64,000 nt of DNA from Obrimoposthia wandeli (taxonomy: Eukaryota), in contig CDROCS010000866.1 in the NCBI GenBank assembly GCA_977020255.1, forward strand, positions 620,001 to 684,000. The letters are read 5' to 3'. Within the stretch, counting starts at the first letter, position 1; each line of letters begins with the position of its first letter. Below the pieces are notes generated by a model, which ran no database searches, had not been told where the DNA came from, and was given only the letters and a program-made list of their open reading frames with translations. This document shows, piece after piece, positions 17,041-61,118 of the stretch. Made by a program: the position numbers and the translations under genes.

Positions 17041-17911
17041 CTTTATAGGCCAAATATAATGTATAAAAACCGTTTCTTCTATTAAAGGTCTACCCTACAA
17101 TAATCTCCTACGCTCTAAAAATCGAGAGAATTGAGAGAAAACGCCTATGTTGGTGGAAATAAGGATTATGTTATGGATGTTATTTGTAATACGAATTTGA
17201 TGAAAATGTTCTGTTGTTTTAATTAATGATAGATATAGTGGAGGCACTTAATAAATTCTTAAAATTTCGTAGAATATTGAATTTTATTGAATTCATCTAG
17301 GACAAAACAAATCATACAAAATAAATTTATATTAAAATATATTTTCCATAAATAAACAAATTTATTAACCTTAACTTTTTAAACTTTGGTTTTACATAAT
17401 ATGTCTATTTTGACACCACTAAAACCCAAATTAAAGTATTTTGAACAAATTATAAAAAAATTTAAAACATATTCTCAAAGTGCGTAACTTTTGGATGTAA
17501 ATATTGGTCTTTTTTTGGATAGATTAAATTGTAGTTTTTCACGTTTCACATCGTATTGACGTTTTGGCGTAAATAGGAAAAATTTCAATTTTGCCAAAAA
17601 TATCGTTTTTCTTTAATTTATTTTGCTTTTGAAAAATAAACGCTTTAGTTGTATGAGCTCCTATGTTAAAACAACAGTATAAATAGTCTAGTAAATAGAT
17701 TCATTCGATCATAACATGTAAAATCACAGTGATATAGGTTGTTTAAGCACTTTAAATCACGTTCCCATTTTAGAAAGGATTAGAAAATTGTTAAAAACTT
17801 TCAAAATTTCCCTATATTTTACTTTATATTTTAACTATATTATAGTATTTAAAATAAAAATAAAATGTTTTGAGCAATGAAAGGCACTGAATGGCACTGT
17901 CTGGCACTGAC

Positions 17912-18392
17912 TATCAGTGGGTATGTCATTCGGAGGCTCGCCTACCGTGGGGTGGGGCAAGCTGTTGATGCCCAGTTCAGGGGGCAGAGAAGCAGCACAG
18001 TCCAGGAAGCTGAGGTGCTGATGGTGCCCTCCAGTCATACCGCCACCTCCCCCAAAAGCATTGCCATGGGAAGACCCCAGGCCGGAAGTGGTGGGAACAT
18101 TGCTACCTACTCGGTCGCGGGAGCGCTGCCAGCGACGATACACCATCACACACACTCCCGTTATCAGGGCACAGCACAGACAAAATGTGCCCAGTACGAT
18201 ACCCACGATTACAAACGTAGCCCGGTCCGACAGGAATCCACTGGAACCGGACTGACTGATTCCCACCTCGCTCGGACCTCCGAACTCAGAGCTTGTCGTC
18301 CGGAAGTCACCGATTACGATGCTCAGCTTTTGAATAGTGTTCTGAACTGGGCTACCACAGTCGCTAGCTCGAATGTAGATATGCTCCACACC
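17912..18392 (-). CDS. Protocadherin-like gene, exon encoding end of last repeat, transmembrane helix and cytoplasmic tail
   Basis: GVEHIYIRASDCGSP...ATFVIVGIVLGTFCLCCALITGVCVMVYRRWQRSR: a hydrophobic helix followed by basic stop-transfer residues. Acceptor ttcttctcctggatccag is clear. The donor (A|gtcagt at 17911) is my best guess. Confidence 0.85.
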
Positions 18393-21300
18393 CTGGATCC
18401 AGGAGAAGAATAACAGTAAAATATCCAGTGATATGCATTGCATTATAAATTGACAACACACGCTATTATTGAAAATAATTAGTAAATGACTTTGGATTAA
18501 GTTATCAAATTAAAGTAATTTGACTATTCACTTAGACCATGCTCGCGACCTTCAAGAACGTCGTTTAGCTATTTCTGGGAATCATAATTTTAGACAGTTG
18601 CATGAACTATTTCTGGGAATCATAATTTTAGACAGTTGCATGAACTATTTCTCCTTTAAGAGAGTTACGACTGCCTGACTTTGACTTCGTTGATAAGTTT
18701 AAGCTGATAAAACAGAGTTGTAAATAAGCTAATCTTTTCTCATGCTGACAGTTCTAATACAATCTTACTGTAGAGTATATATAAGGAATTCCTTATGTAA
18801 GTGCAATAGATAATAATCTAAAATTATAGGAATGAAAATTTTAAAATGTAGGTGTGGATTAAGTGGATTTTCAGAAAATCTGTTATACAGTCTGTGATAC
18901 AAGCAGATTATGTAAAATAAATAAGTAATCGTAAATGCAGGAAACCGCTATTTACATAAAATTCGTTTGTTAACCTCTTGTATGAATGTTGTGTGTTTGT
19001 TTTCGAATGTCTTTATTACTATTATGTCACAGTTTTTCTAAATTATATAAATGACTAGTATTGTGATTGAATATATAGCTTTTATTAACCGTTTTGTCTT
19101 CTTTAACACAGTCAAAATGTTTGGAAAAGTATTATCCATTCCTGTATAATCTCATTAATTTATGAAGGGGGAAATAATTTATTTCCCATTTATTTAAAGT
19201 GTGATATGGATATCATCGTAAAACTATTCGAAAATGCAATGAGACAAAATGAAAATAATAATTGATAAACTGTATCAAGAAACATATATAACCAAAATTT
19301 TTCTCATATTCCAAACTAGTAACACTTTCTTTTTCTACAATTTGTGAAGATAATGAAATTAAAAATGAATATTTATTGTTTCCAAATATTAAATTAAAGT
19401 TTAAATAACTTTTTCTCTATATGAAGGCATGTTCAGAAGCCAAAGATTATTTGGTTATCATGAGGAAGAATAATGCTAATTTATGCTAAGTGGGTTTTTT
19501 AACTGATTTGGTGACAAAACTCAAAAGACTTTATAAAAAAATAGAAAATAAAAAAATGCTGTTAGAAATTATTTTTTCTTTATTATTTTATAAACAACAT
19601 GATTGATTGAGGCCAATTCGCCACCCAGGTCAATTTGTCATAGATAACATATACGAGCACTCAGACGTATAGAATATGATCCTACAGTGTAGTTGAAGTT
19701 GCATCGATATTATTATAAGTACAATATAAACATAAAACTACTTTTCATTTAAGATTTATGCTTACAAGGAATGAAGCAAAATATTTGAACTCATTAAATT
19801 TTACTGTAACATTTTCTTATTTCTATTTTTTCATAAACACTACTTTGGATAACAAATTTTGCTGGAAAATTAAGTGACTATATACCTTAATAAGAACAAT
19901 GTGTATCATATTCATGAAAAAATACCTAAAGCACTGAAAATTGTTTGAGATTTGCAGGGTCATTCTGTCATGATAATTTGTTTTTTGCTGATATAACATT
20001 CTAAAATTTAAATACAAAAATATAAAGACGTCATTAACGTTGAAATTCAGTGTATAAGTAATGCATTTTTTTAACATCGTTATTATTGTTATTATTACAT
20101 TTTAGTGCCATGTAGACACGAAAATAACAAAAATAATCTCAAATAGTATCCACAAAATCTGAAGTCAGTCTTAAAAGCGGTAGCCGGGGGCATGAAAATT
20201 TCACCGGTCACAAAGGACTACAACATTCCGTTTTATGCCTCTCCGATCACGTAAGAAAGATACTGTTTATTATGGTGAAGAAGTATATAATGATCAATAA
20301 TGCACACATAGCAGAGTATTTTTAATGATCAAGAAACAAAGTTAGCCAAATGTATTCTTATTCTATCTATAAAAGACTTCCCAACCACGATAAAACAATT
20401 GCGGAAATCTGCATATAACTACGTTGTCACTTTAACGAAAAATAAAGGAATTGACTCGTTTCCAGCTTCCTGGGAGAAGATTAAATGGCTGTCGAAGATG
20501 GGTGTCTCTTATTCTCGGTGGAAAAATAACCAATTGGCTTTAAGGAAACAAATAAGGTTCGCGCTTTCAATGAAGAAAGTATCAATTCCTATTTTACCAT
20601 CCTTACAGTTGATGAAGCTTTAAAAATCAAGAAGTCATGTAATTCTCAAACGAGCAAGCCAACTACATCGATGACAGTCGATGTATCATCTACCTCAGTC
20701 ATCAACGTCAAAGACCATTAGAATGCCTTCGTTCTTGCCATATGCTAAGAAACCTTTAGCTTAAAGGAGATTTTGTGCGAAGAGCTATGCTTGTTATTCT
20801 TGTAAAAAACATGAAAGGCAAAATTCATGCTGGATTTTTACAAGTGAATTATTTGCCATCAATGCTCTGAGTATATTATGAATGGAAATATGATTTTTAC
20901 TGATATTTTAATGTTTTGTATATTTTATGTAGACAAATGTATAAAACGGTATTAATATTTTATGGGAGGGATTGACCCCAAGCTTACAGTCAAACGTTAA
21001 GCGTTTGTGTACATTTACTATTTATCTGTTTCATAAAATTAATAAATTTTCTTGTTACAATCATTTTGGAGAATCTTTTGATATATAATTAGGTAAATAT
21101 TAATAAATTGCCACTGGTTTTTTTACAATATCATATTTATTCTTTTATTTAGAATTTTTTAAAATTAAATCCTATCCGCATTAATATAAATAAAATCTTA
21201 ACAAGAAAGAATCAATTTAAAAGTTCATATAAATCAATGATCGCAAACATTTTTTTAAGCCTTTACACAATTTTATTGTCCACTATAGTCCACCAAGTCA

Positions 21301-24702: not shown

Positions 24703-25437
24703 TATTGGGTACTTGAATAACCGATGTTTAGGGAAATGTATTATAAGATATAGAATATGCCTATATTTTTAGTTGATAACTATTTATACGATTGTCGTAT
24801 AAAGTTAGTTTTAAATGTATGATCAAGTGAATGTTTACATATTTAAAATGATTTACTTTCATTACATTTAAAGTGTCAAATTATGTTCCAACAAAACAAC
24901 AGCGGCGGGAAGTTTTATTTCAACATTTTAATTTGAGGAAAATTTGCCACAGTAATTCATCGTTTGCTATAACGAATTGCAAGGAATGAAATGAACAATT
25001 TAGAAATGATGATTTTGATGAGAAGACAAATAACGTTCTGAAGCATCGAAATACTTCGAAGATGAGGAATGAGAAACAGTACTTGACGGAAATCCATATC
25101 AAACACTGAAAGAGCTCTCAGAACCAATAAATGTTAATGAATCGACCATAAGAAAACGTTTGAAAGCTATGGGAATAATTCAAAAACAGCGAAATTAGCT
25201 ACCCAAAGAAATTGGCTAAAAACATTGACAGGTGTTAAATCGAATTGTTACTAGTGACTAAAAAATTAAATTTATTACGATAATCCAAAGAAACAAAAAT
25301 TATAAGTAAAATCAGGCCAACCTCAGAATCAATGTAAAAACCGAATCACCATGCAATAAGGGTATTTTGTTTATTAGATATGATCAGAAAGACATTTTGT
25401 ATTATGAGCAGCTAAAACCGTCCGAAACTACCACTGG
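24703..25437 (+). mobile_element. Mariner (Mos1-like) relic, 5' part, interrupted by the Maverick-like element
   Basis: TIR-like gggtacttgaataa; decayed transposase (NPYQTLKELSEPINVNESTIRKRLKAMGIIQKQ...YEQLKPSETTTG). Confidence 0.85.
25432..25437 (+). repeat. Left 6-bp target-site duplication CACTGG
   Basis: CACTGG immediately precedes the left TIR and recurs at 40860-40865. Confidence 0.95.
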
Positions 25438-25511
25438 AGTAGGGGGATGTGTGACTTCTGGAACAAAGACCGTGGGAAAATTTCAAGAGCGTGGGAACCC
25501 CCCCCCCGAGG
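25438..25511 (+). repeat. Left terminal inverted repeat
   Basis: AGTAGGGGGATGTGTGACTTCTGGAACAAAGACCGTGGGAAAATTTCAAGAGCGTGGGAA(C)10GAGG; reverse complement of 40786-40859 with one mismatch. Confidence 0.97.
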
Positions 25512-25530
25512 GATTTTTTTTTCCCACGGT

Positions 25531-25624
25531 GATGAGTCATCGAACAAAGACCATGAGTCATCGAACAAAGACCATGAGTCATCGATGAGTCATCGAACAA
25601 AGACCATGAGTCACCGATGAGTAA
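25531..25624 (+). repeat. Left subterminal array of GATGAGTCATC / GAACAAAGACC units
   Basis: TGAGTCA at 25533, 25554, 25575, 25586 and 25607; 21-bp and 11-bp units. Confidence 0.9.
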
Positions 25625-26829
25625 TGTCCTTTGTCATGCGACCGTGGGAACTTTCCCATGAGCGTGGGAACTTTCCCACGGTCTTGAGAATTTTCCCACG
25701 CTCAAGTCCTTTGTTCTAATAATTTTCTCAAGATCTACTATAGTAGACATGTACTTTGCAGCTCAACCATCGATGCTATTGACAAGCGGTCTTCACCAAA
25801 GGATACATAAGAGTTCGGACCTTCGACTAAGGTTGATCAGACCTTCGAGAGTTGGACCTTCAAGGGTCAAAAACCTTCAAAGGGTTCAAAATTTTTTATT
25901 TTTCTACTTTTTGATGTTATGGATAATAGACTTGGTCTGAGGTTGGTCCGACCTTCCAAGGACCTTCAAGGGTGGACCTTCAAGGGTCAAAAACCTTCAA
26001 AATTTTCAAATTTTTTATTTTTTCCAAAAAGTTAAAAATTTATTTTTTCAAAAATTTTTGTTTAAATTTTCAAAAATTTTGGCGCTAAAAATTAAAAGTT
26101 TCTAAATCACTTGTACATCATTTTTGCAAAATATTTTCTTCAAAACTTTATTACTTCAAAATCAATTACTTTTAAAACAAAGTAATAAAAAATTTACAAA
26201 ATTTATTTACCTAAATTAAGCTATGTAAATTCCATCTAATATGTTTTTTATTTGCTTACATCACGCATACATGTATGTGTGTGAATAATTAGACAGATGT
26301 TGACACGTGCAAACATAATTAAATGTATGTATGTATGTATATGTGAACATATTTGATTACTAGTAGATTAACAAATACATCAGATGACATCCCTTGCATG
26401 TATGTATATGTAACTACATCATATCAAAAATTTGTTTTAATGCATCAATTTCAATGCCCGAAAATTCAAATATATGTTTGCTATGGTTACAAGTATGTGT
26501 CATTTTTGCTACATCAAGATATATTTACTAAAATGTGGACATCACTTCATCTTATCTCTTCTCATCTAATGTTTTCTAAAGAAACTATGTAATCTTAGAT
26601 GTTAAACTGAAATTAAAAATAGATCAATATTCTACATGTTATTGATTATAGATATTAAATCTCGATTAATATATTGATATTTCTAATGTATACTGTAGTG
26701 TATTCTGATTGGTGGAAGATTGATTAAACAAGCAAACACATAGTAAACTTTGCTAAGAGAAATTGGAGTATAGTAATCCACTGGAATGTCTTCTGATTGT
26801 TGGTAGATTGCTTGAATAGTGAACTTAGA

Positions 26830-27660
26830 CTATATTAATATGTGTGTATGTATGAATACTTACAAAATTTTACAAGCTGACAGAACAAGAAAAAATAGAG
26901 ACTATTGGGTGTATGTATGCATGCATGTCTGAATACTTACAAGAAATACAAGGTATATACAGAACTCTAATTATTGTTATTAATCATTACATCTCTATCT
27001 TTTTCAATTCGAATCAATATTGTTTATCATAATAACAACTATATGTTCTATATTATGTTCTAAAAGTATTGATGTATTGAGGAAATTAATGATATGTTCA
27101 GGAAATTTACAATATTTTGATGATTCTAAAGACTAAATTAATGATATGTCCATGAAATCTATGATATTTAGGACGTTCTAAGGAAGAAATTATATGAGAT
27201 TTAGTAATATTGATTAGCATTGTTTGGAAGTTTTCAGTTGATTGAATAAATTTAGGGAACAGTATACATTGATAGAGTGTGTATAAGAAAATTGACTATA
27301 GTAATATTATATGTCTGTGTGTATGTGTGTGTGTATGAATACTTACAAAAATATATGACAAATATACCTAAGTAATATTGTATGTGTGTGTATGTGTGAA
27401 TACTTACAAAAATTTACAAGTTGAGAGAACAAGGAAAATAGAACATAGAGACCATTGGGTATGTGTGTGTGCATGTGTGTCTGAATACTTACAAGAAATA
27501 CAAGGTATATACTAAAATCTAATCATAAAACATTCCATCTCTATCTTTTTCAATTCCACATCGATATTGTTTATCATAATAACAACTATATGTTCTATAT
27601 TATGTTCTAAAAGTATTGATGTATTCAGGAAATTAATGATATGTTCAGAAAATTTACAAT
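26830..27660 (+). repeat. Internal direct duplication (about 26830-27110 versus 27390-27660)
   Basis: Shared tgaatacttacaag...ctctatctttttcaattc...ttatgttctaaaagtattgatgtatt...ggaaattaatgatatgttcag blocks. Confidence 0.8.
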
Positions 27661-27684
27661 ATTTAGATGCTTCTAGAAGAGAAC

Positions 27685-28265
27685 TCACGTGGAAGTTTAG
27701 TGGTTTAAGAAGGAAAATAACATCGACATTAGGGAAATCTCATGGAAGTTGAATGGTTTAACGAGGAAAATAACGTGGAAGTTAGGGAATTCTCATGGAA
27801 GTTGAGTGGTTTAAGGAGTAAAATAACGTTTGAAGTTAGGATAATCCCATGGTAGTTAGGAAAATCTAGTGGAACTTAGGGAAATATTGCAGTAGTTAGG
27901 GAATTCTCATGGAAGTTGAGTGGTTTAACGAGGAAAATAACGTGGAAGTTAGGGAATTCTCACGGAAGGTGAATGGTTTAATGAGGAAAATTACGTGGAA
28001 GTTACGGAAATATCATGGAAGTTGAGTGGTTTAAGGATGAAAATAACGTGGAAGTTAGGGAATTCTCATGGAAGTTGAGTGGTTTCAGGAGGAAAATAAC
28101 ATGGAAGTTAGGATAATCCCATGATAGTTGAGGAAATCTCATGGTAGTTAGGGAAATCTTCCAGTAGTTAGGGAATTCTCATGGAAGTTGAGAGGTTTAA
28201 GGAGGAAAATAACTTAGTAGTTACGATAATCTCATGGATGTTAGGAAAATTTCATGGATGTTAAG
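27685..28265 (+). repeat. Degenerate tandem array, about 53-bp composite unit
   Basis: Recurring TGGAAGTTAGGGAATTCTCATGGAAGTTGAGTGGTTTAAGGAGGAAAATAACG and its subunits. Confidence 0.9.
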
Positions 28266-29819
28266 AGGTTTAAGAGGAAAAAATATAAGGAAAGGGTTTA
28301 AGGAAAGAATAGCATAGAATCAGACCAATATCAAGCCTACCTCTTTCATTAAAGCAGTCATAGATGGATGTTTTTTAAATAACATTCATAATTTAACCTT
28401 ACTTATACATCAATGTTGATTGAAATATTCTACCTTGCAGTTGTTTAAAATATTCTACGTTGTAGTTGTTTAACTTTAAACATTTTGTTGTAAAAACTAA
28501 GATATTAAGACTTTTGAGTTAGATAATCAGGTTAGGCTAAAGGAAAACATTAGAAATTTTATAAGAATGAATCTAATAATCAATAAATCGAGACATATCT
28601 TCTAACATCTCTATCATGAATCTTCTTTCAAAAACTTTCATCCCTAACTTTCAGAGAAATTATCAAATACCATAAATTCATATATTTCCATACATATTGA
28701 TTATTGAAAAACTGAACTTATCAATATTATCAACATCTAATCTCACTATCATCAACCATCATAAAGTGGTTGATAATAGGAATAATGATTTTTCTAATGT
28801 GTCATTGAGATTTAGACTTTGAAATGGAATAATATAGTTAAATATAGAGAAGACTTAGATGTTTTGATTATCATACAAGCTCGCATACAAAGAATCTTAT
28901 ACCAAAATTATCGATAATACACATATTTCATCTATATCATAACACATGTTGTAAATCCTAATAAAACCTTAACAATAATTCATCATAACTATTTTATTGA
29001 TTAATCTATTCTATCAAGTATCTACTGATTATTGAATCTAGGGGCTATGTTTAATATTTCTAAAGATAGAATAGTTTCTCACCATTTTATTAAGATAGTA
29101 CTATTCATTACTAACGTTTCATAAATCATCTAATTCAATAAATATCAATATTCACATCAATATATCCTTAACTTTCGAACTTCTTATAAAATATTAATAA
29201 ATATAAAGGAGAAAATACGTACCTTTATTAGTTAATTCCATAGAGTCCAAACAGAAGTCACTAAGCCACAGGATGCAATCTTGTATATTCCATTGTAATT
29301 CGGTTGGGTAGACATTGATCCATTGATATTCCGGAAAATGACATCATAATATTGGATTTTTCTTCTTGAGTTTCCATGAATAATATGATGACGTTGCTAT
29401 AAATCAGCTTACATGTTTATTTAAATATATCTTTGTTTATATAAAACTGAGACTCAGATTAACCAATAAGAATAGATGATACAATGTTACTAAAAATAGA
29501 TTATTTTATAGGGTTAAGAAGAGGAAAATCTCATAGTGGTTAAGATGTTTATGGAGAGTTGCTGAACATATTTGCACATAATATATGTAAAGATGTCCAT
29601 CTTCTAATTGGTTGATGCAAGTATTGACTAAATATTGCAAGCTTCTAATTGGATAACAAGAACAAGTGAAGTTGGTACATGTGTACATGTCTATATTTAG
29701 ACATAAATACTATTATAATTATTAACGCGCGCGAATCATACCAAAAATTTTTAAAAATTATTTTTGAAAATGTGTCAAAAATATTTTTTAAAAAATATTT
29801 TTGAAAATGTGCCAAAAAT

Positions 29820-29956
29820 NNNNNNNNNNNNNNNNNNNNNNNNNNNNNNNNNNNNNNNNNNNNNNNNNNNNNNNNNNNNNNNNNNNNNNNNNNNNNNNNN
29901 NNNNNNNNNNNNNNNNNNNNNNNNNNNNNNNNNNNNNNNNNNNNNNNNNNNNNNNN
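29820..29956. other. Assembly gap (137 N) inside the element
   Basis: Run of N; true length unknown. Confidence 1.
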
Positions 29957-30233
29957 TGAATAGTAATTTATTAAATTTTATGCAATAAAGCAACATATTC
30001 CATTAAATTATTATTATTACTTAAATAATTGTCTTTGTTTCTATTCTTTAACAAAAACCTTCAAATGAGATGTAAACTTTAAAGTTTTATGAGTAGATTT
30101 AAATATTTGGAAATTTAAATAAATTTAAAAAGGAAATGGTTAAATAATTAATAGTTTAATTTAAGTTTAGTACTTATTTTAGTAAGTAGATCAAACGTTT
30201 TAAATGTCAAAATAAATTGAATAATAAATTCTA

Positions 30234-30310
30234 ATTGGATACGATTCTTATTGGAAGAAATATATTATTTTAGTATAAAAGAATAAAGCAATAAGAAATC
30301 AGTCTCAGTT
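30234..30310 (+). promoter_or_regulatory. Pol II promoter of pPolB (CCAAT boxes, TATA, Inr)
   Basis: ATTGG at 30234 and 30250, TATAAAA at 30274-30280, TCAGT at 30299 and TCAGTT at 30305 (25-31 nt after the TATA start), ATG at 30321. Confidence 0.65.
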
Positions 30311-30320
30311 ATAAACGAAA

Positions 30321-33300
30321 ATGGTAAGATTTTTGTTATTTTTAAATTATATTTAATTTTTCTTTTAGAATTGCAATATGAATAAGAAGTTATGTTTTGT
30401 GAAGAGTCACGTTGAGTGTGACGAGAAGATGAGGAGCTACTTCGCGCAGAAGTATAATGGCAAGCTGTTCTACGTCTGCCCAGTTTGCCTCTCGTCTGAG
30501 GAGATTGTTTGGGAGGAGTTTGTGGAGAAACATCGCCACCATCTTCGACATTTTCAACAGCGCGGAAAGAAATCTATCTTCCAATCGAGAAGTATTATGC
30601 CTACTCCCATGCCTGTTGCTGCAACCTCTGCGCCACATGGTCGAGCTCCTATACCTCGAAGTCAAGTATCTTCTCCCGCGCCTACTCCTGCTGTTAGCAC
30701 TATGCCTACAAATGCTGTGATCGCTCCCATGCCTGTTGCTGCAACCTCTGCGCCTCATGGTCGAGCTCCTAGTCAAGCCGCTTCTACCGCCCCTACTCCT
30801 GCTGCTCGTGTTAGTAGTATGCCTACGGTTGCTTCTCCGAATGTAGTGGCTCCGGTATTTGCTATTCCTGCCGCGACACGTGATCGAGTGCCTACTCCCA
30901 CATCTGCTTCTCCGATTGTAGTGGCTCCGGTATTTGCTATACCTACCGCTACTCGCGCTCGAGTGCCTTCTACGTCTGCTGCACCTGCGCCTCCACTATC
31001 TTCTCCAATAGCTTCAACATCTGCTGCTGCTGCTCCTGTCTCCACATCAAATGGAGTTGGTATGAGCCCCACTAGCGCGCCGATGGTAGCACCTACCCGC
31101 AAGAGAAGTGTTATGCCCACTTCAGGTAGCTCTGCTGCGAAGTTTACCAGGGTTGATCCCGTGAATCGCAAGACAGGCGTTCGCGGGACAATTGAAACAT
31201 TATCATTAGATGTTTCTAATGATAATATGAGTGAATTAGTTGTTCCTCATTCTTTATTAGCAGCTTTAGCTGATTCTATTGCTCGCTTTACTAGTTGCAA
31301 AATCCAATTCGGAGTGCGTGTTGAATTCACCAACGTAGGAGAGACACGCGCTTGGAATTTCTCCAATAGGGGGCTCCCAATGGATGACGGATTTTTGTCT
31401 GCTGGAGTCGATGCAATTAAGAAGAAGATCGAGAATTATTCTCAAAGCGGGAGTAATTGGACGGTCAATCGATTCCTGGAGATTTCGTTTGTTGTCACGA
31501 AAACAACAACGATTAATTATCTCCAGGGAAGTAGCTATATTCCCACTCCATCGGAATTAGCCTTATCACATTGTGTGATTAATGTACAAAACACAAACAC
31601 GTTTTGCTTTCTATATAGCATTTTAGCTATTATTTTTCGGGAGATATTTCGTTGCAATCCTCATCGAGTTAATCAGTATGAAGGGTTGTTACGTGAATTA
31701 ATTTTTGACGAGGATGAGATGCCGATGCGGCTCTGTAATATTGGACGTTTTGAAAGGAGGAACCCAACTCTTTCTATTAATGTTTTCAGCTTTAATAGGT
31801 TCGCAAATGTATCAACAGAGCGGGATATCTTTAAAAATCCCTATGTTGATATAATTTATAGGACGACAAACCCGAACGGAAGGGAAATCAATCTTCTCCT
31901 TTTAGAGATGAATGATAATTTTCATTACGTGGCTATTCCGAAACTCAATAGGCTACTAAATTACAGGAATAGAGGTGTTTCTAATCGCATTCAGTGTACT
32001 TGGTGCCATAAGTGTCTCCACGGGTTCCGGAGACCGATAAGTTACGCCAAGCACGTTCCACTCTGTAGGATGAATTTAGATCATTCTACACTTTATTCAA
32101 TGCCTACAGAGAAGCATATTGAGTTTACGGATTTTTCAAAAACCATTTCTCCGCCTTTTGCTGTTTACGCGGACTTTGAGGCTGTGCTACCGCCACATGG
32201 AATTTATCACCAGATTCAGCTCCCAATCTCGGCCGGTATGCTCATGTCTCCCGTTGCAGCCACCACTGGGTTTACATATGATTACTCAGTTTTCACTGGA
32301 GAAAATTGTGTAGTCTCTTTTTTGCAGAAGTTGGAGGAACTGGCAAAATTTGTTGTACTCCCATGGTATAAAAATCATGCGATTGAGGTTATGCGCCCAC
32401 TTACATCGGAGCAGAATTCAGGTTTCAATGCTGCAGTAATATGCTACCTGTGTAAGAAGAGGCTAGCTAACAAAGTTCGGGACCACGATCACATGACAGG
32501 AGACTATCTTGGAGCTGCGCATTCTAAATGCAACTTATCAAGGAGATTAAACCGCTCTTTTCCCGTTATTTTTCACAATTTGATGGGATACGATATGCAC
32601 CACATACTGAAGCACGCGTTGAATCGATTTCCGCACTGGAGTATCTCTGTCATACCTCAATCGACGGAGAAATTTCAGGCTATGATGGTGCATATTGAGG
32701 GAGTCTGTATCCGGTTTATAGATTCGTTGCAGTTTTTGTACAGCGGGCTCGAGAAACTTGTTGAGAACCTGGGTGTTACTCCATTGACACATTCCGTCTT
32801 CCCACAACATTTGGTGAGCGCAAAGGGGATTTTCCCATATGACATGGCCGTCTCAGAGACTATTACAACTTTACCACCAATTTGGAGCGACAAGATCAAG
32901 CCGGAACAGTATGAGATGGCGAAGAATGTATGGACGCAATGCGAATGCACATCTCTCTGGGACTATATGCTGGTGTACATGAAGATGGACGTCTACCTGC
33001 TGGCTGATGTCTTCACGGCATTCCGCATCAAGGCTATTGCTGACGACGGATTGGAACCACTCAATTTCTTCTCCATTCCTGGTTTGTAACAAAATATTTC
33101 AATATTAAGTAATCAATTTTAGTAAATTATTGTACAAAATAATTGAATCAGTAATTAATTTTAGTAATTTATTGAAAAGTAAATTGATTTTAGTAAATAT
33201 TTTTATGGAGTATAAATATTACTGATTTATCTTTATTTGTTTTCTCATCACAGGATTGACTTTCGCAAGCGCCTTCAAGTCGCTGCTCCGTCCGGAAACT

Positions 33301-34746
33301 GTCTTGGCTTCTACTACTACTACTACTGCATCCACCTCTGCTGCTGCTGCTTGTGTGATCTCTCCCGCGTCTCCTCCACCTGTGCGAGTCGAGCTCATCC
33401 AGGACCCGGAGATGTATCGTCTTTTTCGGTCTGGGATTCGAGGCGGGATGACCTTCGTGAACGAGCACAAGGTGGATGCCATCAACGGTACCGAACTTTT
33501 ATATATTGACGTGAATAACTTATACGGGTGGGCCATGTCCCAGTTTTTACCTTGTGGCAACTTTTCATGGGTTACTGACCGAATTGAGTTGGGGAATATT
33601 ATCAGTAGTCTTAAATCAGCGGATTTGTCCTGTAGTCGCTTCGCTCATTTATTGGAAATAGATTTATCCGTGCCTAATGAGCTACATAATAAATTTGACG
33701 ATCTCCCAATTGCTCCGATTAAACAGCGTCCACCTGGTTGTAAGACTGAAAAATTATTACTAACACATTACCCTAAGAAACATTATGTTGTCCATTCTAG
33801 ATTGCTACAAATGTACATTAGACTTGGTGCTAAGGTAGATTTTGTATATCGAGCAATACAGTTTGAACAAACTAATGTTTTTTCAAAATATATAGAAGAC
33901 AATTCAATAAAAAGAGCTGCAGCTACAACAGATTTCGAGAAGGATTATTATAAACTGAAGGTTAATTCTTTATTCGGAAAACTCATAGAGAATCTGATGA
34001 AGAGAATTAATCTTCGGATTTGTAATACTCCACAGAAGCTGGTTACCTATTGTAGTAAAGCCCAGTTTCGTAGGACTATTGAAATCGATACAGACCTTAT
34101 CGCAGTTCTACTGAATAAGGAAAATATTGTTTTGGATCGTCCTAGTTATATGGGCCAGGCAGTGTTAGATTTAAGTAAACTTCGTATGTATGAGCTGCAA
34201 TATATACAGTTGGAGAAATATCGAGTGCAATTTAACTGCGATATTAGAATTATAGCAGGTGACACTGATAGTTTTTTCTTAAAGTGTAATAATGTAAATG
34301 TGCAAGGATCACTGTTACCTGCTATGGTTGCTGATGGGCTGTTGGATACCTCGAAATTTCCAAAAACCCATCCGTTATATACAACGCTTAATACGGCGAT
34401 AGGTAAATTCAAAGATGAGAGCAAGGGATTATTTAGCTATAGGCAAGGAATATTTCTACGTCCGAAATCGTACAGTTTAGAGACTACTGAAGGTGAATCT
34501 CAGATGAGAGCTAAGGGTATTAGTCTCCAACAGACGAGTATTAGACACGCTAATTACTTGGCGGTGTATGAGAGTGGGGTTAGTGAGCGAGTACAACAAC
34601 AACGTATAAGCTCACTAAATCATCAACTGTTTACTGTAAGGTTAAGTAAAATTGCCTTAAGCAGTACTGATGATAAGAGGAAGTGGATAGCTAAAAATCG
34701 GTCAGTAGCCTATGGTCACTTTTTACACCCTGATGAAATTGTATAG
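30321..34746 (+). CDS. pPolB: Protein-primed family B DNA polymerase, spliced: join(30321-30323,30369-33081,33254-34746), about 1402 aa
   Basis: ExoI VYADFE, HNH/EndoVII-like CYLC...DHDHMTGDYLGAAHSKCN, ExoII IFHNLMGYD, ExoIII YMKMDVYLL, GIRGG, motif A YIDVNNLYGWAM, motif B KLKVNSLFGK, motif C AGDTDS, RPKSY. Splicing the two GT-AG introns gives 4209 nt with no internal stop. Confidence 0.93.
30324..30368 (+). other. 45-nt intron after an ATG-only first exon of pPolB
   Basis: ATG|gtaaga...ttttcttttag|AAT TGC AAT ATG is in frame with the 30378 ORF; strong donor and T-rich acceptor. Confidence 0.7.
33082..33253 (+). other. Spliceosomal intron in pPolB (172 nt, phase 1)
   Basis: CCT G|gtttgt...tttctcatcacag|GA TTG restores SIPG-LTFASAFK. 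The intron is very AT-rich, and the same position and phase is used in the second copy (39521-39866). Confidence 0.9.
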
Positions 34747-34815
34747 TCACTTTTTACATCCGAATGAAATTGTATAGTTTTATTGTGTTTTTATTCAATC
34801 TTTGTGATTTTAGGT

Positions 34816-34821
34816 AATAAA
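34816..34821 (+). terminator. Candidate polyadenylation signal of pPolB
   Basis: AATAAA 70 nt after the stop codon, followed by T-rich sequence. Weak evidence given the AT-rich background. Confidence 0.45.
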
Positions 34822-34964
34822 AATGTTAAAAATATTTGTCTTTGACTAGAATTATTTCGGATTTGACTAGGAATATTATAAATTATTAATTATTTTACTT
34901 CGTTTTTAAAAATGTTAATTTATTATTATTATTATGCTTATTAATAATAATTATGTTTTATTTA

Positions 34965-35590
34965 AATAGCAGCTGTCGCTTAATCTAAACATGACAGCTG
35001 CTGATAACATTACAAAATATTTAATGTAAATAGCAGCTGTCGCTAATCTAAACATGCGACAGCTGTTGATGACATTGCAAAATATTTAATGTAAATAAGT
35101 TATAATGTAAATAATAATTATATTTAGTTTAACGAAGAAGAACAGCTGTCGCTTAAGATAAATAAAGCACTTAACGTGCGACAGCTGTTGATGATGACAT
35201 CATGGAAACATGATTAATTATTTATATTTCCTTCGGGAAACACGAGCAAGCATCAGTGAGGTAATCACCATCTGTCACTTATCTCATCTAAACACATACA
35301 CACGTGACAGATGGTGATTACATCCTCAAGTAATTACACACGCATGCATGCATTATTGATTTAATCACCATCTGCCATTAATCTAAACATACGCATACGA
35401 GACAGATGGTGTCTACATCCTCGGGTAATCATGTACGCATGCATTATTGATGTAATCACCATCTGTCACTTATCTAATCTAAACACATACGCATGACAGA
35501 TGGTAACTACATCTTCGAGTGATAACACATGTATACATTAGTGATGTAATCATCAACATAATCTAAGCATACACATATTAGATGGTATTA
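34965..35590. repeat. Two tandem families of inverted-repeat (hairpin) units
   Basis: Three CAGCTGTCGC...GCGACAGCTG-type units (34970-35190), then 3-4 units of about 90 bp of the type GTAATCACCATCTGTCAC...GTGACAGATGGTGATTAC (35261-35590). Confidence 0.85.
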
Positions 35591-36806
35591 ATAATTTATT
35601 GCAATAATAATAATAATAATAATAATAATTTTATTTAAGTTTACTAATATTATTATTCATATTTCTCAAATATATATAAATTCACATACACTAATATTAT
35701 TTATTACCATCTTTATTAATCATACACACACATACTCCTTTGTTAAATAATTTGTAATATGTATTGCAACTTTTTGCAATATATTAACACCTTTGTTAAG
35801 TATAAAAGGATAAACACACACACACACACAGGATTTTTTCTTTATTACAAATAATTTCTTTATAATACTAACATTACGATAAAGATACTAGAACATACAT
35901 ACATAAAAAATTAACTTTGTTTCTTTATAAAATAAAAATCAATAAAAAATCAATAAATGTTACAAATAATGGTAAATATTTTAGTTACTTATAAAATAAA
36001 AGTAAATTATTTTAAAATAATTCTTTGTAATTATTTAACAATTTATAAATATAATCTTAAATAAACTACTTATAACAAAAATACCACCATATTACATTAT
36101 TTTAATTAAATGACTTTCAATAATCTTGTTATAATGAAAGGATCCTTTGTTGTACATGTTTAAATAATATAATTATGAAATTGATGTATTTAAACAAAAT
36201 GTCTTTATGATGTCTTTATGTTAATAATTTAAACTAGTACATGCATGAGTAATGTAACCAACATGCTAGATGGAATTTACATCATTATTGATGTAATAAA
36301 ACAAATTCTTTATATAATATAGTAAAATCACAAATACTCGTAACCATAACAAATATATATTTGTATTTGTGGGTATTGAAATTGATGCATTAAAACAAAT
36401 TCTTTTGGTAAAATTACTATACATGATCAGCTTTACACATGTAATTAGATAACTGTTAAAATACATAAGCTTTATTTATCAAATTATATAATACTTATTT
36501 TTATTAGTAGATAGTTTAATTGAATTTAGTTTAAATAAATTTAGAAATTATATAATACTTATTTTTATGAGTAGATAGTTTAATTGAATTTAGTTTAATT
36601 TTAGAATTTAGTTTAATTTTTATTAAATAGATAGCTTGCTTAGCTACTTTTAATAGTAAGTAGCTAAAGTTTTAATAAATAATTTTCTATGTGACGTTTA
36701 AAAACATATTTTGTAGAATTTTCCTTTCCCTCCCATCCCTTTCTTTTGTAGTCCTAATGAGGACTTTGGGTTCGTTCTCAAGTGTGTGTGTTTGTGATCA
36801 AGGGCC

Positions 36807-36992
36807 TCATCGCCAGTTTTCATTTGGTAAGATGAGTGGCTGGTCTTTTGATAACCAACAAATGAAGCCCGGGATCTCTTCTACTTCCAGAGCCTCCCGG
36901 AGCATCAAGCCCTCAGCGAGATAACACTTCTCTGCTAGAGTGTGCTCGCTCTCCATAAGCTCCTTTAACAAATTTTGTCGTTTTTCTTCCAT
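36807..36992 (-). CDS. Small protein A (61 aa), unknown function
   Basis: MEEKRQNLLKELMESEHTLAEKCYLAEGLMLREALEVEEIPGFICWLSKDQPLILPNENWR. GC-elevated island, upstream TATATAAG, and a homologous second copy at 38376-38543. Confidence 0.7.
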   Translation of the reverse strand: MEEKRQNLLKELMESEHTLAEKCYLAEGLMLREALEVEEIPGFICWLSKDQPLILPNENWR

Positions 36993-37934
36993 TAAAAATA
37001 ATGAATTGAAACTAAAATATTTCTCTTATATACTCTTCCTTGGTTAATTAATTTTATTGATGCAGTAAAACAAATTCTCTTTTAATTAATAATGGATAAT
37101 ATAATAAAATTTCGAATTAAATAAAATACATATGATATATAATAACTTAGATATATCCTAATTAAATTTTTATTATACATTTAATTAAATGACTTTTGTT
37201 TAAATAATATTATTATGAAGAAAGGATGCTTTGTTGCATATGTTTAAATAATCTAATTATGAAATTGATGTATTTAAACAAAATGTCTTTATGATGTCTT
37301 TATGATGAATAGTTTCTTTGTTACATAGAAATATTGGTACACACATGTACATATGTATATAAGCTTGAAGACACACACACGCACATAAGATGTATTTTGT
37401 TTAAATAATATAATTATGAAGAAAGGATGTTTTGTTGCATATGTTTAAATAATCTAATTATGAAATTGATGTATTTAAACAATATGTCTTTATGATGTCT
37501 TTATGATAAATAGTTTCTTTGTTACATAGAAATATCAGTACACAGGAGTTGAAAGAGTACACACATGTGCATATGTATATAAGTTAAGCTTGAAGACACA
37601 CACCTGATATGTCTTTTGGTGAAGACTGCATGTTAATACAAGCTTACATAGAAATAGTGGTACATACATGCATATATGTATATAAGTTAAGCTTGAAGAC
37701 ATACACACACACACGCAGGAGATGTGTTTTGGGTAAGACTGCATGTTAATACATGCTTTAGATAAAAATATATATAGTTTTAAATAAAGGCAGTACACAC
37801 ATGCACACATATACTATTTAAGCTTGACCACAGACACACACGCACACGATATGTCTTTTGGTGAATACTGCATGTTAATATAGCCTTTAGATAAACAGAT
37901 ATATAGTTTTAAAGAATGTTACTAAAAATAGAAT

Positions 37935-38000
37935 ATGAGTCATCGATGAGTCATAGGATGAGTCATCTATGAGTCATCGATGAGTCATCGATGAGTCATC
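37935..38000 (+). repeat. 11-bp tandem array of ATGAGTCATCG
   Basis: TGAGTCA at 37936, 37947, 37959, 37970, 37981 and 37992. Confidence 0.95.
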
Positions 38001-38375
38001 TTATGACCTCAGCATGACCTTAAATGACATTGTCCTCATGACGTCTGTCCTTAACTTGAACTTAAATGACATTGTCCTCACCGTGACCTTAAGTTGTCCT
38101 CATGACGTCATGACCTTAAGTTGACCTTAAAGTACATTGTCATCATCATCTAGAGAGAAATAATTCTTCTTTGTAATTATTTAACAATTTATAAATATAA
38201 CCTTAAATAAACTACTTATAACAAAAAGTAGCAAAAGTTTTTAAAAATATTTTAACATATTACATTATTTAAAGACTCTAACCTTAGTTAGAGTCTTTTT
38301 CCCCTTTCCCATTCCCTTGCTTATGAGGCCCTAATGAGGACCGGGGGGTTCGTGTGTGTGTGTGTAAGATGAAGC

Positions 38376-38543
38376 TTAGGCTTCTAGTATGATAGGATTC
38401 TCATCATACCAGAAGCAAATGAAGCCTGGTTGCTCCCAGACTTCAAGCGACTCTTGCTTAAGAAACGGCTTTATGAGCCGAGTCTTCTCCTCTAGGCTTT
38501 TCTCACTTGTCATAATAATTTCGATAATTCTTAAATCTTCCAT
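38376..38543 (-). CDS. Small protein B (55 aa), paralogue of protein A; not in the supplied ORF track
   Basis: Manual translation MEDLRIIEIIMTSEKSLEEKTRLIKPFLKQESLEVWEQPGFICFWYDENPIILEA*. 23 of 55 residues identical to protein A by hand alignment; upstream TATAAAAG. Confidence 0.7.
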   Translation of the reverse strand: MEDLRIIEIIMTSEKSLEEKTRLIKPFLKQESLEVWEQPGFICFWYDENPIILEA

Positions 38544-38769
38544 TTTAAAAATTGTGACAAGAAATGAAAAATATTTCTTCTTTTATATGCTCCCTCCTAT
38601 CTTCTAGTATAATTAATTTATTGATGTAGTAAAACAAAAATCAATTTTTTATTTATAATTCATTATATAAAATTATATCGAATTAAATAAAATGCATATG
38701 ATTATTTTATTTATTGAAATTAAATAATATTCATATGATATATAATAACATTAACAAATAAATGTTGTA

Positions 38770-38805
38770 TTAAGTCCATCGCCTTAACCACTCGGCCATT
38801 CTAGC
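38770..38805 (-). tRNA. 5' half of tRNA-Leu(UAA), fragment only
   Basis: GCTAGAATGGCCGAGTGGTTAAGGCGATGGACTTAA: acceptor 5' strand, D-arm with A-box TGGCCGAGTGG, anticodon 5' stem, CT and TAA, then similarity stops. No 3' half or T-arm nearby. Confidence 0.7.
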
Positions 38806-38988
38806 TCTTTGTTCAACATTATTAAACTAGTTTTTAATAAAAATAATTTAGTAAAATATATGTTACTTATAAATAAAAGTATTATCAATTAAAGAAAATA
38901 AGTTTTGAAGAAAATAAATTTTTGAAGAAAATAAATTTTTGAAGAAAAATTTTCAGAGGCAAAAATTTTCATGTACAAAAAAAAAAAT

Positions 38989-40191
38989 TTCGTCATTTTT
39001 CACAATCTTATGGGTTATGACATGCACCATATATTGAAGCACGCACTATGCAAGTTTCCCGACTGGAATGTATCTGTTATACCTCAATCAACAGAGAAAT
39101 TCCAGGCTATGATGGTGTATATTGGAGGAGTCTGTATACGTTTCATCGATTCCCTTCAATTTTTGAACAGCAGCTTAGAAAAACTTGTGGAAAACCTAGG
39201 TGTGACTCCTCTTACACATTCGGTCTTCCCGCAACATCTGGTGAGCGCCAAGGGAATCTTCCCATACGATATGGCAGTATCAGAGACTGCTCTTCGCGCA
39301 ATCACCAGCTTACCACCAAAGTGGGATGAAAAGATCAAGCCAGCACAATATGAGATGGCGAAGATGATCTGGACTCAGAGCGGCTGCTCATCGCTCTAGG
39401 ACTATATGCTGGTCTATATGAAGATGGACGTCTACCTTCTAGCAGACGTGTTTACAGCATTCCGGACCAAGGCCATTGTTGACGATGGATTGGAGCCACT
39501 CAATTTCTTCTCCATCCCTGGTTTGTATTTTACTAATTTTTCTAATTTTAGACACTAACACATATATATATACATGTATAAGAATAAATGTAGTACTTGT
39601 TACTATTGATTGCATAAAGATGCAGGTTTTTGCAATAAAGATGCAGCACGTCTTTGTAAGTATTGATGATTGTCTTTGTTAGACACACACGTGACTGTCT
39701 TTGTTAGATACTCACACACATATATACATGTATAAGAATAAATGTTACGATTGATTACATAAAGATGCAAGTATTTGCAATATAGATGCGTGACTGTCTT
39801 TGTTAGATAGATGATTTTCAAAGTAATGATTTTCACAATGATTTTAATAAATGTTTTTATTTCCAGGACTGACTTTCGCGAGTGCTTTCAAATCCCTGCT
39901 TCGTCCGGCTTCTTCTTCTGCTCCCGTTGTGCGAGTCGAGCTAATACAGGATCCTGAAATGTACCGACTCTTCCGGTCTGGGATTCGCGGGGGTATGACA
40001 TTTGTTAATGAACACCGCGTTGACGCCATCAATGGTACAGAACTTTTGTACATTAATGTAAATAATTTGTACGGGTGGGCTATGTCCCAGTTTTTACCTT
40101 GTGGTAACTTTTCCTGGGTGACTGATCGGTTAGAGTTGGGGAATATTATTTCCAGCTTAAAATCAGTAGATTTATCCTGTAGTCGCTTCGC
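38989..40191 (+). pseudogene. pPolB: Truncated second pPolB (sister lineage), ExoII to palm start, with intron 39521-39866
   Basis: VIFHNLMGYD...CSSL*DYML...NFFSIPG|LTFASAFK...YINVNNLYGWAM...CSRF. Nonsense change TGG>TAG at 39397-39399; truncated at both ends. Confidence 0.9.
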
Positions 40192-40439
40192 AGGTTTTTG
40201 CAATATAGATGCAGTACGTGACTGTCTTTGTTAGATAGATATAGATTTAAAGTATGTTACTAAAAATAGAATCTTTTTGACTTCACCGTGACCTTAAGTT
40301 GACCTTAAAGTACATTGTCCTCGTCATGACCTTAACTTGACCTTAACTTGCCCTGACCTCATGACCTACATCTTGTCCTCATCGTGACCTCAAGTTGTCC
40401 TCATGACTTTAAATAAAAAATCATGTGTACTCGGGAGAA

Positions 40440-40785
40440 ATTTGACCTACATCTGTCATAAAAAATTTGAATTCAAAAATTTTCGCGCAAATTTCAAAAA
40501 TTTTGACCTATATTATAAATTTTTTGCGCAAATTTCAAACATTTTCAAAAATTTTCGCGCAAATTTCAAAAATTTTGACCTATATTATAAATTTTTGGCG
40601 CAAATTTCAAAAATTTTCAAAATTTTCAAAAAATTTCGGGCAAATTTCAAAAATTTTCAAAAAATTTCGCGCAAATTTTAAAAAATTTGACCTATATTAT
40701 AAATTTTTTGCGCAAATTTCAAAAAATTTGACCTACATTTCAAATTTTTCGCGCAAATTTCAAAAATTTTGACCTAGATTTTTGT
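40440..40785 (+). repeat. Right subterminal A/T-tract array with TTTCGCGC and TGACCTA motifs
   Basis: Recurring aaaaattttcgcgcaaatttcaaaaattttgacctatattataaa units ending at the right TIR. Confidence 0.9.
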
Positions 40786-40859
40786 CCTCAGGGGGGGGGT
40801 TCCCACGCTCTTGAAATTTTCCCACGGTCTTTGTTCCAGAAGTCACACATCCCCCTACT
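40786..40859 (-). repeat. Right terminal inverted repeat
   Basis: CCTCA(G)9TTCCCACGCTCTTGAAATTTTCCCACGGTCTTTGTTCCAGAAGTCACACATCCCCCTACT; mirrors the left TIR. Confidence 0.97.
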
Positions 40860-40865
40860 CACTGG
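40860..40865 (+). repeat. Right 6-bp target-site duplication CACTGG
   Basis: Immediately follows the right TIR; identical to 25432-25437. Confidence 0.95.
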
Positions 40866-50515: not shown

Positions 50516-50960
50516 ATGAAACTCGTAAATATAAATTATAAAGGAAGAATAGAATACGATATTTCGCACTTACCATTCAATGATTGAAGCCGAAACAATA
50601 TGTTAAAAAGTTTGATGATTTCACAGTGGTTATTTTATTTTCATATTGAATTCTTTTAGGAAGTTGTCGTGTTATGGGATGCAAAACGCCGTTGAATGAG
50701 ATCAATTTACCATTTGGAGTACAATCAATCACAGTTTCAGTTAATCTTGGGAAACCAATAAATATTTATAAAATAGCAGAGAAAATGAAAAAAGAATGCA
50801 TGTTTGAACCTTGAATTTTTCCTGCTTTCAGATATTTGAAGTTGTGTAAAGATATTATGTTTAGGGTATGTTTAAAGATATTTTCTAGTGGTAAAGGTAT
50901 GAAATTGGGATTGAGAAAATTGGATTATCAATATACTGTTGAATCGATTTTAGAGAATAT
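50516..50960 (+). pseudogene. TBP-like (TATA-binding protein fold) gene relic
   Basis: ...GSCRVMGCK...ITVSVNLGKPINIYKIA...CMFEP*IFPAFRY...KIFSSGKGMKLGLRK resembles the TBP repeat (VxSxDLxxxIxLxxLA...YEPExFPGLIY...IFxSGKxxxTGAK); stops and a frameshift present. Confidence 0.6.
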
Positions 50961-50984
50961 ATTTTATTACATTTTACTTAGTAT

Positions 50985-51200
50985 CATTTAAAAATCCGAG
51001 AGATCAAACAGTTGTAGATTTCATGGCCAGACAAGCATTTCCTCTAAATAAGAACTTTCTAGTTGATTCATTCCATGATGCTGCTAAACAAGCAAATGGG
51101 TATATATTTATTGACTTTACATAAGCTTACCCAGATGATTTACGTGTTTTAACAGATATATTTAATTCTAAGGGAGTAACTGTTTATAAACAAACAGAGA
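50985..51200 (+). pseudogene. Maverick/Polinton packaging ATPase C-terminal relic
   Basis: FKNPRDQTVVDFMARQAFPLNKNFLVDSFHDAAKQANGYIFIDFT*AYPDDLRVLTDIF matches the Polinton ATPase pattern FKNPRD...LARQxYP...YGYLxID...RLRTxIF. Confidence 0.75.
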
Positions 51201-51559
51201 ACAATTATAAAAAAATTAATTTGCAATGCCTTTTAGAAGTTTATTGTAAAACGTAAACGTAAAGTAAAGGCTAAGCCTAAGGCATAAAAAAGAATCAGTA
51301 AGAAAAAGAAAGTTAATAAATTAATCGAGTATGTATTTAGAAGTAAAAGAAAACTTAAATAGCTTCAAATATAAACAATATTAAACTTGCACTTTTTTTG
51401 AAATGAAGAAAGTACAAAGAAGCATACCCATTTTAAAGCTTTGATCAAACCTTCTTATCATAAGAGAATGAGTATTCTTAAAGCATTTCCATATTTTTTT
51501 TGTAGATGATTTATTTGAAGTTTTTTTATAATATAGTTTTGGGAGAATTAAGTTTATCC

Positions 51560-56544: not shown

Positions 56545-57560
56545 GTTTAGTTTTATGATCATTTTTATCACTGAAATTCACAAAAAAATACTTCATCGTT
56601 GGTTTTAACGATTTAGAAGATTAAATATTAAAAAAGGTTCTAGAAAATTAAAAATATCAAGTAAATATAAAATTATATTTATGTAAACAAAATGCTGGAT
56701 ATTGTTAAATAATTTTTTTTAATTTCAATTTTTTGCTAAATTTGCTAAAAAAACATTTAAATAGTTAGCAGTTGAAGGTTAGACAAACAAACAAACTACT
56801 AAAAACATTAAAAACATTAAAATCTGATTTTTATAATAATACACAATATAATATTTCAAAATTTTTCTTTCACTGTGAATATTTAAATTTAATAATTTTT
56901 CAAAAAGAAATAAAAACATATTTATGTCTTTCTAAATATACAGATGCATGTGAATACACAAATTTAAGTTTAAATTATTTACATCAACTAATTAATTAAG
57001 AAACTTATGTTTTTCTTCCAATATTTCTTTTGCATACTACTTACACGTTTAGTTTTATGATCATTTTTATCACTGAAATTCACAAAAAAATACTTCATCG
57101 TTGGTTTTAACGATTTAGAAGATTAAATATTAAAAAAGGTTCTAGAAAATTAAAAATATCAAGTAAATATAAAATTATATTTATGTAAACAAAATGCTGG
57201 ATATTGTTAAATAATTTTTTTTAATTTCAATTTTTTGCTAAATTTGCTAAAAAAACATTTAAATAGTTAGCAGTTGAAGATTAGACAAACAAACAAACTA
57301 CTAAAAACATTAAAAACATTAAAATCTTATTTTTATAATAATACACAATATAATATTTCAAATATTTCAAAATTTTTCTTTCACTGTGAATATTTAAATT
57401 TAATAATTTTTCAAAAAGAAATAAAAACATATTTATGTCTTTCTAAATGTACAGATGCATGTGAATACACAAATTTAAGTTTAAATTATTTACATCAACT
57501 AATTAATTAAGAAACTTATGTTTTTCTTCCAATATTTCTTTTGCATACTACTTACACGTT
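56545..57560 (+). repeat. Tandem duplication, about 502-513 bp x 2
   Basis: Unit restarts at 57047 (gtttagttttatgatcatttttatcactg); the copies are nearly identical with a few indels. Confidence 0.95.
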
Positions 57561-59987: not shown

Positions 59988-60911
59988 CAATTTATCAATT
60001 AATTAAAATCTATGTTTCATTTTGATCTAATAAAAGTATTAGTTATTTAAATTACTAGTGAATTTCATAAATAAAATGTATTTAAACATTTTTTTTTCAC
60101 CTCATCACCCTTTGTGCTGACTAAAATGGGTCACTAGGCATTCGTAAAACGTGCGACTTCAATTATGTAAGCCACGCATCGTACCCAATTAAAGTTCGGG
60201 AATAAATTTAGAACGTCATATTGCCAGCACTTTTGTTTGATTTAGGTTTGCTTTTGTTTAACTTAAAATTGTAAGGAACGCAGCCCAATTTCTAAAATTA
60301 TTTGCAATTAGTTATCTAATAAGAATTTCTTGACAGTCATTTCATATTCTGTGAAATTTAAATAAAATATTTAAAAGTAAATAAAGTTTTATGAACGAAC
60401 CATTTAAACAAGATTAATATGTATAATTTTTTATTTTTTTAATATTTCTGATCATTTATAATTTTGGGAATAATAATTGAATATTCTTTTTGACACATAT
60501 TTTACAGTTTTCTGTAAATATAACAATAAACAGCATTTATTTATTATAGCACAAATATCTGAAAAAATCTGATTTAATACTTAATAGCGCTTCCATTATT
60601 CTTTGTAGAATTTTCTGAACAGGAAAGTCTTCTGCTGCTTTTGAATTTTTCAACTGTTACAGTTTTATATATTAATCGATAAATGGTTGTAAAGATCCGG
60701 AGCATGACTTTTATAAATTCCATCACTCCAAATTTGAAGAAGATTTGAGATTTCCACTTTGATAACTTTCCTTGTCAGTTAAAACACTTTTAAAAAATAT
60801 ATATATTTAACCTTTTTTTAATTTCTTTTAGACACAATTTTTTGTTCACATTATTTAACATGTGCTTGGTTTTCAGACCACAGAGCAATGTACCTTATGG
60901 TAACCGCTTAC

Positions 60912-61118
60912 CCTGTGACTCTCGCGATTGGGGAACGTGAAGTGCGGTGCATTGTCGTTGACATCACTGATGTGGATCTGCACAATGGCGGTCGCTGTTT
61001 TCCGAAATAACATGTTGGCAGGCGAGTCAGTTGCTATAACAGCAAATCGGTATCCACGAGGAACGGTCTCACAGTCCAGAAGACTCTGACTTGTGATGGT
61101 TCCAGTTGAGGAGTCCAG
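60912..61118 (-). CDS. Protocadherin-like gene, exon
   Basis: LDSSTGTITSQSLLDCE...FAVIATD...VQIHISDVNDNAPHFTFPNRESHR. Acceptor tgtcag, donor AGG|gtaagc; 207 nt, phase 0/0. Joins the previous exon in frame as PFK|LDSSTG. An alternative donor exists at 60894. Confidence 0.9.

Follow-up and report, generated by a model that had tools for sequence, protein, structure and literature searches.

The systems closest to the DNA considered here are the Maverick/Polinton elements (adintoviruses), the adenoviral genome ends with their ITR, packaging domain and E1A enhancer, and the binding sites of the Notch effector CSL, also referred to as Su(H) or RBPJ. Intact vertebrate Mavericks are 12.7-24.6 kb in length and, in the passages drawn from PMC8097293, are reported to be intronless. 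Putative transcription-factor sites lie near the TIR of a C. elegans Polinton, although the passage concerned names no factor (PMC11414722), and the excerpts of 10.1101/2023.08.22.554363 and PMC8502044 describe end motifs and genes only. The adenoviral replication complex, according to an excerpt of PMC6141750, uses the host factors NF-I and NF-III. In excerpts of that source and of PMC5033970, the adenoviral ends combine host-factor sites with an enhancer behind the left ITR, and the A-repeats at 220-400 bind the viral proteins IVa2 and 22K (PMC5033970).

With respect to CSL itself, CGTGGGAA (hereafter the octamer) is the consensus employed for Su(H) sites in an excerpt of PMC8494340, and the 11-nt EBV TP1 element is quoted in an excerpt of PMC7685452. 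Both excerpts state that cooperative Notch dimers require a 15-17-bp spacer. Monomeric sites are described as binding the Hairless repressor complex additively and as being more readily repressed (PMC8494340, excerpt). It is already known that protein-primed DNA viruses can carry host-factor sites at their ends, and that viral promoters can contain CSL sites. A literature search of listings and the opening lines of abstracts, with subscription papers and Repbase largely outside its coverage, returned no report of CSL sites in Mavericks, and it returned no paper on the adenovirus pIX RBP-J site. CSL is present in animals and, given that the host is an animal, a host CSL should exist.

The element, its genes and its surroundings

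The window, that is, the whole stretch of DNA analysed, comprises 64 kb from Obrimoposthia wandeli. Within it a Maverick-type element spans positions 25438-40859, or 15,422 bases, and at 15.4 kb it falls inside the range given for intact vertebrate Mavericks in the excerpt of PMC8097293. Of the Maverick/Polinton criteria, pPolB (protein-primed DNA polymerase B), TIRs with an AG/AGT end motif, and a target-site duplication of 5-8 bp (here 6 bp) were found. The TIRs are 98.6% identical over 74 nt and both open with AGTAG followed by G, whereas the Maverick end motif is (AGT)2. The bounds and genes are as follows.

25432-25437, plus strand: left target-site duplication, 6 bp, the same hexamer as on the right
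25438-25511, plus strand: left TIR, 74 nt, with head-to-tail octamers at 25471 and 25490, 19 bases apart
29820-29956, no strand: assembly gap (N run) within the element, which could hide genes
30378-34746, plus strand: pPolB gene, exons 30378-33081 and 33254-34746, both open
36810-36992, minus strand: small ORF, 61 aa, with a paralogue at 38379-38543
38379-38543, minus strand: paralogous small ORF, 55 aa, 42-45% identical to the 61-aa ORF
38971-40234, plus strand: partial second pPolB, truncated at both ends, ~80% identical to the first copy
40786-40859, minus strand: right TIR, 74 nt, with mirror octamers at 40800 and 40819
40860-40865, plus strand: right target-site duplication, hexamer equal to 25432-25437

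The two pPolB exons, both of which match PF03175, are parted by a predicted GT-AG intron at 33082-33253. The second copy carries an in-frame stop at 39397-39399 and shares the intron at the same codon (39521-39866). This intron distinguishes the element from the vertebrate Mavericks reported as intronless in PMC8097293 (excerpt), and it implies host nuclear transcription and splicing. In the closest relatives pPolB is one continuous ORF (L139, 76-3987). Between the two copies, 108 codons differ synonymously and 31 with a change of amino acid, which argues that both pPolB lineages have been under purifying selection. The small ORF showed no match to any known family and none in the Atlas. Together with the duplicated pPolB and flanks, its paralogue suggests a mosaic element to which two related lineages have contributed.

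A search of 4,888 candidates yielded 621 pPolB homologues at E <= 1e-20, and 64 loci were fetched. The closest metagenomic relatives, L128 and L139, display 50-53% pPolB identity and carry an rve integrase, an A32-type ATPase and a TBP-like gene; a ubiquitin-conjugating-enzyme-like protein is additionally encoded by L139. Genes of the TBP-like and ubiquitin-conjugating-enzyme-like types are located at L139 11333-11806, L128 10321-10779 and L139 13477-13974. The ORFs of at least 80 aa from the 64 related loci, integrase, ATPase and TBP-like genes included, served as tblastn queries (E <= 0.01) against the DNA between the TIRs. Only pPolB was recovered, with no integrase, ATPase, capsid or protease outside the gap at 29820-29956, which could hide genes. 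Thus, whereas full relatives carry integrase and ATPase, the genes recognized in the element are only pPolB, its partial copy and the two small paralogous ORFs. It is likely non-autonomous, with the same reservation as to the gap. Queries with pPolB found nothing in viral contigs, and the integrase profile found six distant viral loci, all without pPolB. Four contig sets of one sample hold 76-78% of the words of 25438-26400 and may represent the window's own source; no RNA data set was among the matches listed for these words.

Judging from the left flank peptide, which gave weak matches to the Mos1 transposase (E 0.023) and to Pfam Transposase_1 (E 0.013), the insertion appears to interrupt a decayed mariner-like transposase reading frame; no transposase match was obtained for the right flank peptide. 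Further out, a Pfam cadherin match, with an E of 5e-4 that does not reach the curated cut-off, lies on the minus strand at 60876-61190, and cadherin-like Atlas neighbours were found for 17838-18509, also on the minus strand. These cadherin-like exons, which mark the host as an animal, share a strand and appear to flank the element; the insertion may be located within an intron of such a gene. Outside the TIR-bounded element, 50587-51205 holds a decayed remnant of a second Maverick, in which a TBP-like gene with in-frame stops (PF00352, E 2e-8) is adjoined by the C-terminal part of a packaging ATPase at 50969-51205, the order being that of L128 and L139. Also observed were fragments of a transposase of the Spin-doc zinc-finger type (PF18658) at 58100-58863 and a near-identical tandem duplication of ~500 bases at 56545-57560, which could be recent or an assembly artefact.

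Arrangement of the CSL-type octamers

Exact copies of CGTGGGAA are located on the plus strand at 25471, 25490, 25643 and 25663 and on the minus strand at 25521, 25673, 25693, 40800 and 40819. A tenth, at 55248, lies outside the element. The sites beyond the TIRs are contained in the following features.

25521-25528, minus strand: single octamer just inside the left TIR, an exact match
25641-25717: inner cluster with octamers at 25643 and 25663 (plus), 25673 and 25693 (minus) and a variant at 25653 (minus), on a 10/20-bp period
27690-28242, plus strand: 53-bp tandem array of ~10 copies, holding one relaxed match to the CSL site at 27957 plus several degenerate ones

The preliminary description had reported nine exact sites, the variant at 25653, and an imperfect palindrome at 25641-25682, and all of these are present. 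Its identification of the octamer with the high-affinity CSL/Su(H)/RBPJ consensus likewise held, the match being exact. The enrichment that it had proposed to measure against shuffled sequence was also found, with ten octamers in the whole window versus 0.49 expected and none of 100 shuffles reaching ten, under a null that ignores duplication of sites. This statistic overstates the evidence, because the sites are copies of one module. Indeed, the right-end octamers mirror those of the left TIR, and the segment at ~25669-25717 aligns as an inverted copy of the inner half of the TIR; the nine sites thus amount to repeated copies of a single short module. For the variant at 25653, an origin by CpG decay was not favoured, given that the observed/expected ratio for CpG is ~0.8 throughout.

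The first octamer starts 34 bases from each end of the element and the second 53. The former distance would, by analogy, be compatible with an adenovirus-like ITR. At the left end the exact octamers are of mixed orientation, four plus and three minus. When the eight left-end copies are aligned, 63 of the 64 octamer bases are identical and every copy is followed by A or C. Positions -3/-2 are conserved in seven of the eight, and columns further out are looser, with +11 to +16 and -5/-6 conserved in six of the eight, which reflects common descent and the dyad that the copies share. In this small sample of related copies conservation is highest over the octamer, and it may stem from recent duplication, the copies sharing ancestry. 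The left 323 bases fold as single-stranded DNA with a z of -8.63, the inner half of the TIR pairing with the inner block. The right end, which lacks such an inverted copy, folds more weakly (z -2.98).

Head-to-tail octamer pairs, an arrangement also seen in monomeric CSL reporters, recur here at distances of 19 or 20 bases. For inverted pairs whose first site is on the plus strand, the spacers are 2, 22, 22, 23, 42 and 42 bp, and one of the two pairs separated by 2 bp uses the variant octamer; two CSL molecules may not fit at that distance. The Su(H)-paired site (SPS) has inverted octamer pairs as well, but its spacer is 15-17 bp, and no inverted pair here has such a spacer. An SPS arrangement is thereby ruled out, and the candidate CSL sites would be monomeric. 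The described behaviour of monomeric sites towards Hairless would fit a combined silencer and switch. The window contains the 11-nt word of the EBV TP1 (LMP2A) RBPJ response element at three places, 25471, 25690 and 40816, all inside the element. EBV provides EBNA2 as an activator, whereas no element-encoded counterpart was identified here. For the inner dyad, an NF-kB reading was set aside as too long, and a heat-shock-element reading as having only two units, both by comparison with the consensus sequences of such sites.

Other repeated words and octamers elsewhere

An unsupervised search for over-represented 8-base words in non-coding DNA placed the octamer second among 15 repeated-word families of the element (10,096 non-coding bases). 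The left flank (25,431 bases) contains none and the right flank (23,135 bases) three, and the 64 pPolB loci, with 51,766 non-coding bases in total, yielded 16. Tandem duplication inflates such word counts, and short words match something easily. Listed below are the arrays concerned, with factor names that were assigned after the sequence had been seen, and which are accordingly presumptive.

25533-25613, plus strand: five AP-1-like words among AACAAAG words (TCF/Sox-like)
34970-35502: two E-box-like arrays of mixed orientation, CAGCTG type with 6 copies and CATCTG type with 6
37922-38127, plus strand: MEF2-like decamer, six AP-1-like words and one CRE-like palindrome
37922-38127, plus strand: nuclear-receptor-like half-sites at 11-base spacing
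40260-40781, plus strand: right subterminal region with MEF2-like decamer and nuclear-receptor-like half-sites (11- and 8-base spacing)
within 40260-40781, plus strand: 41-bp array with E2F-like and ROR-like words

When compared with 48,566 flank bases, the element contains 11 AP-1-like words versus 4, 18 nuclear-receptor-like half-sites versus 18, 3 MEF2-like decamers versus 0, and 4 E2F-like words versus 0; the two E-box types number 6 versus 10 and 9 versus 16. Four pairs of half-sites are 11 bases apart and one is 8 apart, which we take to correspond to DR5 and DR2 elements. The E-box-like arrays are positioned downstream of pPolB. Several of the 15 families, consisting of AT-rich and CA-rich words, resemble nothing specific. 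The pattern as a whole raises the odds that host factors read the words, without proving it. Elsewhere in the window, at 63624-63877, one 8-base word recurs five times, in both orientations, within a GC-richer stretch of the right flank that may be coding.

None of the 64 pPolB loci contains an exact octamer cluster (two or fewer octamers per locus), these being loci in which no terminus was recognized when the contig ends of all 64 and the repeats of the eight longest close ones were inspected. When viral contigs were scanned for octamer pairs with 9-14 bases between them, at least 122 loci were recovered; as they were chosen for the pattern, they give no rate. Among the matches listed, pPolB occurs in none of these loci, at least four octamers within 200 bp in 33 of the 122, and the 11-nt TP1 word in 28 of the 122. 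The octamers of such dense clusters lie on one strand in 32 of the 33, among the matches listed, versus the mixed strands of the element's left end. All four loci inspected (L005, L012, L072 and L077) carry phage genes, such as those for a sigma factor, ThyX, a terminase small subunit and tail fibres. Arrays of five to eight octamers in one orientation, mostly at 19-25-bp spacing, are found at L072 3001-3136, L012 2978-3081 and L025 340-524. In L072, seven octamers at 21-23-bp spacing lie near the gene for the terminase small subunit, possibly as a packaging or origin repeat. We know of no CSL in bacteriophages. Such arrays accordingly arise without CSL, and the octamer is not diagnostic of it.

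Interpretation of the terminal octamers

CSL-type sites at the Maverick ends are a real feature, with weaker support than the raw count suggests. The reading that we tentatively prefer, and for which we would claim slightly less than an even chance, is that the octamers are copies of one terminal module and may serve as monomeric host-CSL sites in a multi-factor terminal enhancer/silencer. Counted in favour of a host factor were the mixed orientation at the left end, the conservation centred on the octamer, the TP1 matches and the word families. The module would have spread from the TIR through fold-back and short tandem duplication, with the octamer being retained by selection. The integrated element would be held quiet by CSL and co-repressors; in particular cell states its transcription would be activated by Notch signalling, acting jointly with bZIP, HMG-box and nuclear-receptor inputs. 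Replication would be affected indirectly, via expression of pPolB and other genes.

The preliminary description had suggested that the replication origin may recruit CSL, tying replication or silencing to Notch state. In that scheme CSL would be an origin co-factor that loads the terminal-protein/polymerase complex in the manner of NFI and Oct-1, such that replication depends on Notch state. The two octamers within each TIR, at the distances from the end given above, speak for it, as does the adenoviral replication complex with its host NF-I and NF-III (PMC6141750, excerpt). Six of the eight left-end copies, however, lie outside the TIR and at one end only, and the titles and opening lines of abstracts in the literature searched contain no report of CSL acting at a protein-primed origin. 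We regard this scheme as improbable. The sites are not tied to replication rather than to transcription or packaging, and an origin role is unsupported. The exact consensus match survives from the earlier proposal, but the CSL-like words are one of many repeated-word families, an abundance that speaks for a multi-factor regulatory module rather than for an origin specific to Notch.

The octamer could instead be the site of an element-encoded protein, namely an integrase, the terminal-protein/polymerase or a packaging factor, with the likeness to CSL sites coincidental. Repeats in and behind a terminus are the usual anatomy for sites of a replicon's own proteins, and the 10/20-bp period of the octamers and the L072 phage array beside its terminase gene are in keeping with this. 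Adenovirus, likewise a linear protein-primed replicon with host-type sites in its terminal repeat, has a regulatory block rich in repeats behind its left ITR and none behind the right, much as the inner cluster of the element is confined to the left end, and its A-repeats bind IVa2 and 22K (PMC5033970, excerpt). The factors differ, though, and in adenovirus both host and viral binders have been demonstrated, whereas those of the element are putative. A protein of the element would leave its many unrelated word families unexplained and, since no remnant of an integrase, ATPase or capsid gene was detected between the TIRs, such a binder could only be supplied in trans or encoded in the gap. We consider such a site unlikely. 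Doubtful as well is the view that the octamer is unread, the cluster being a fold-back or slippage by-product of strand-displacement replication or mattering only as a hairpin. The strong fold of the left 323 bases relative to shuffles, the fact that the inner block can be aligned to the inner half of the TIR, and the short tandem arrays that fill the element (42 rows) are all in its favour. Yet a comparison of the TIR with its inverted copy shows intact octamers set in spacers that have acquired indels and substitutions, albeit over few events, and the right end, without an inverted copy, folds more weakly.

A broader and more speculative reading, which we think rather unlikely, extends the preferred one of monomeric host-CSL sites to a Maverick lineage that would tie its latency to developmental signalling. 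CSL would silence the element until Notch fires, and the AP-1, nuclear-receptor, MEF2, E2F and E-box arrays would restrict activation to a cell state such as that of dividing stem or germ cells; in this respect the Polinton ends are likened to a herpesvirus latency switch. The exact CSL-type sites and the clustered host-type words provide short, specific oligonucleotides for tests. Should CSL fail to bind, the octamer would become a candidate site for recognition by Maverick proteins. Should it bind, the element would possess a candidate on/off switch, and with every new insertion Notch-responsive DNA would be brought into host genes.
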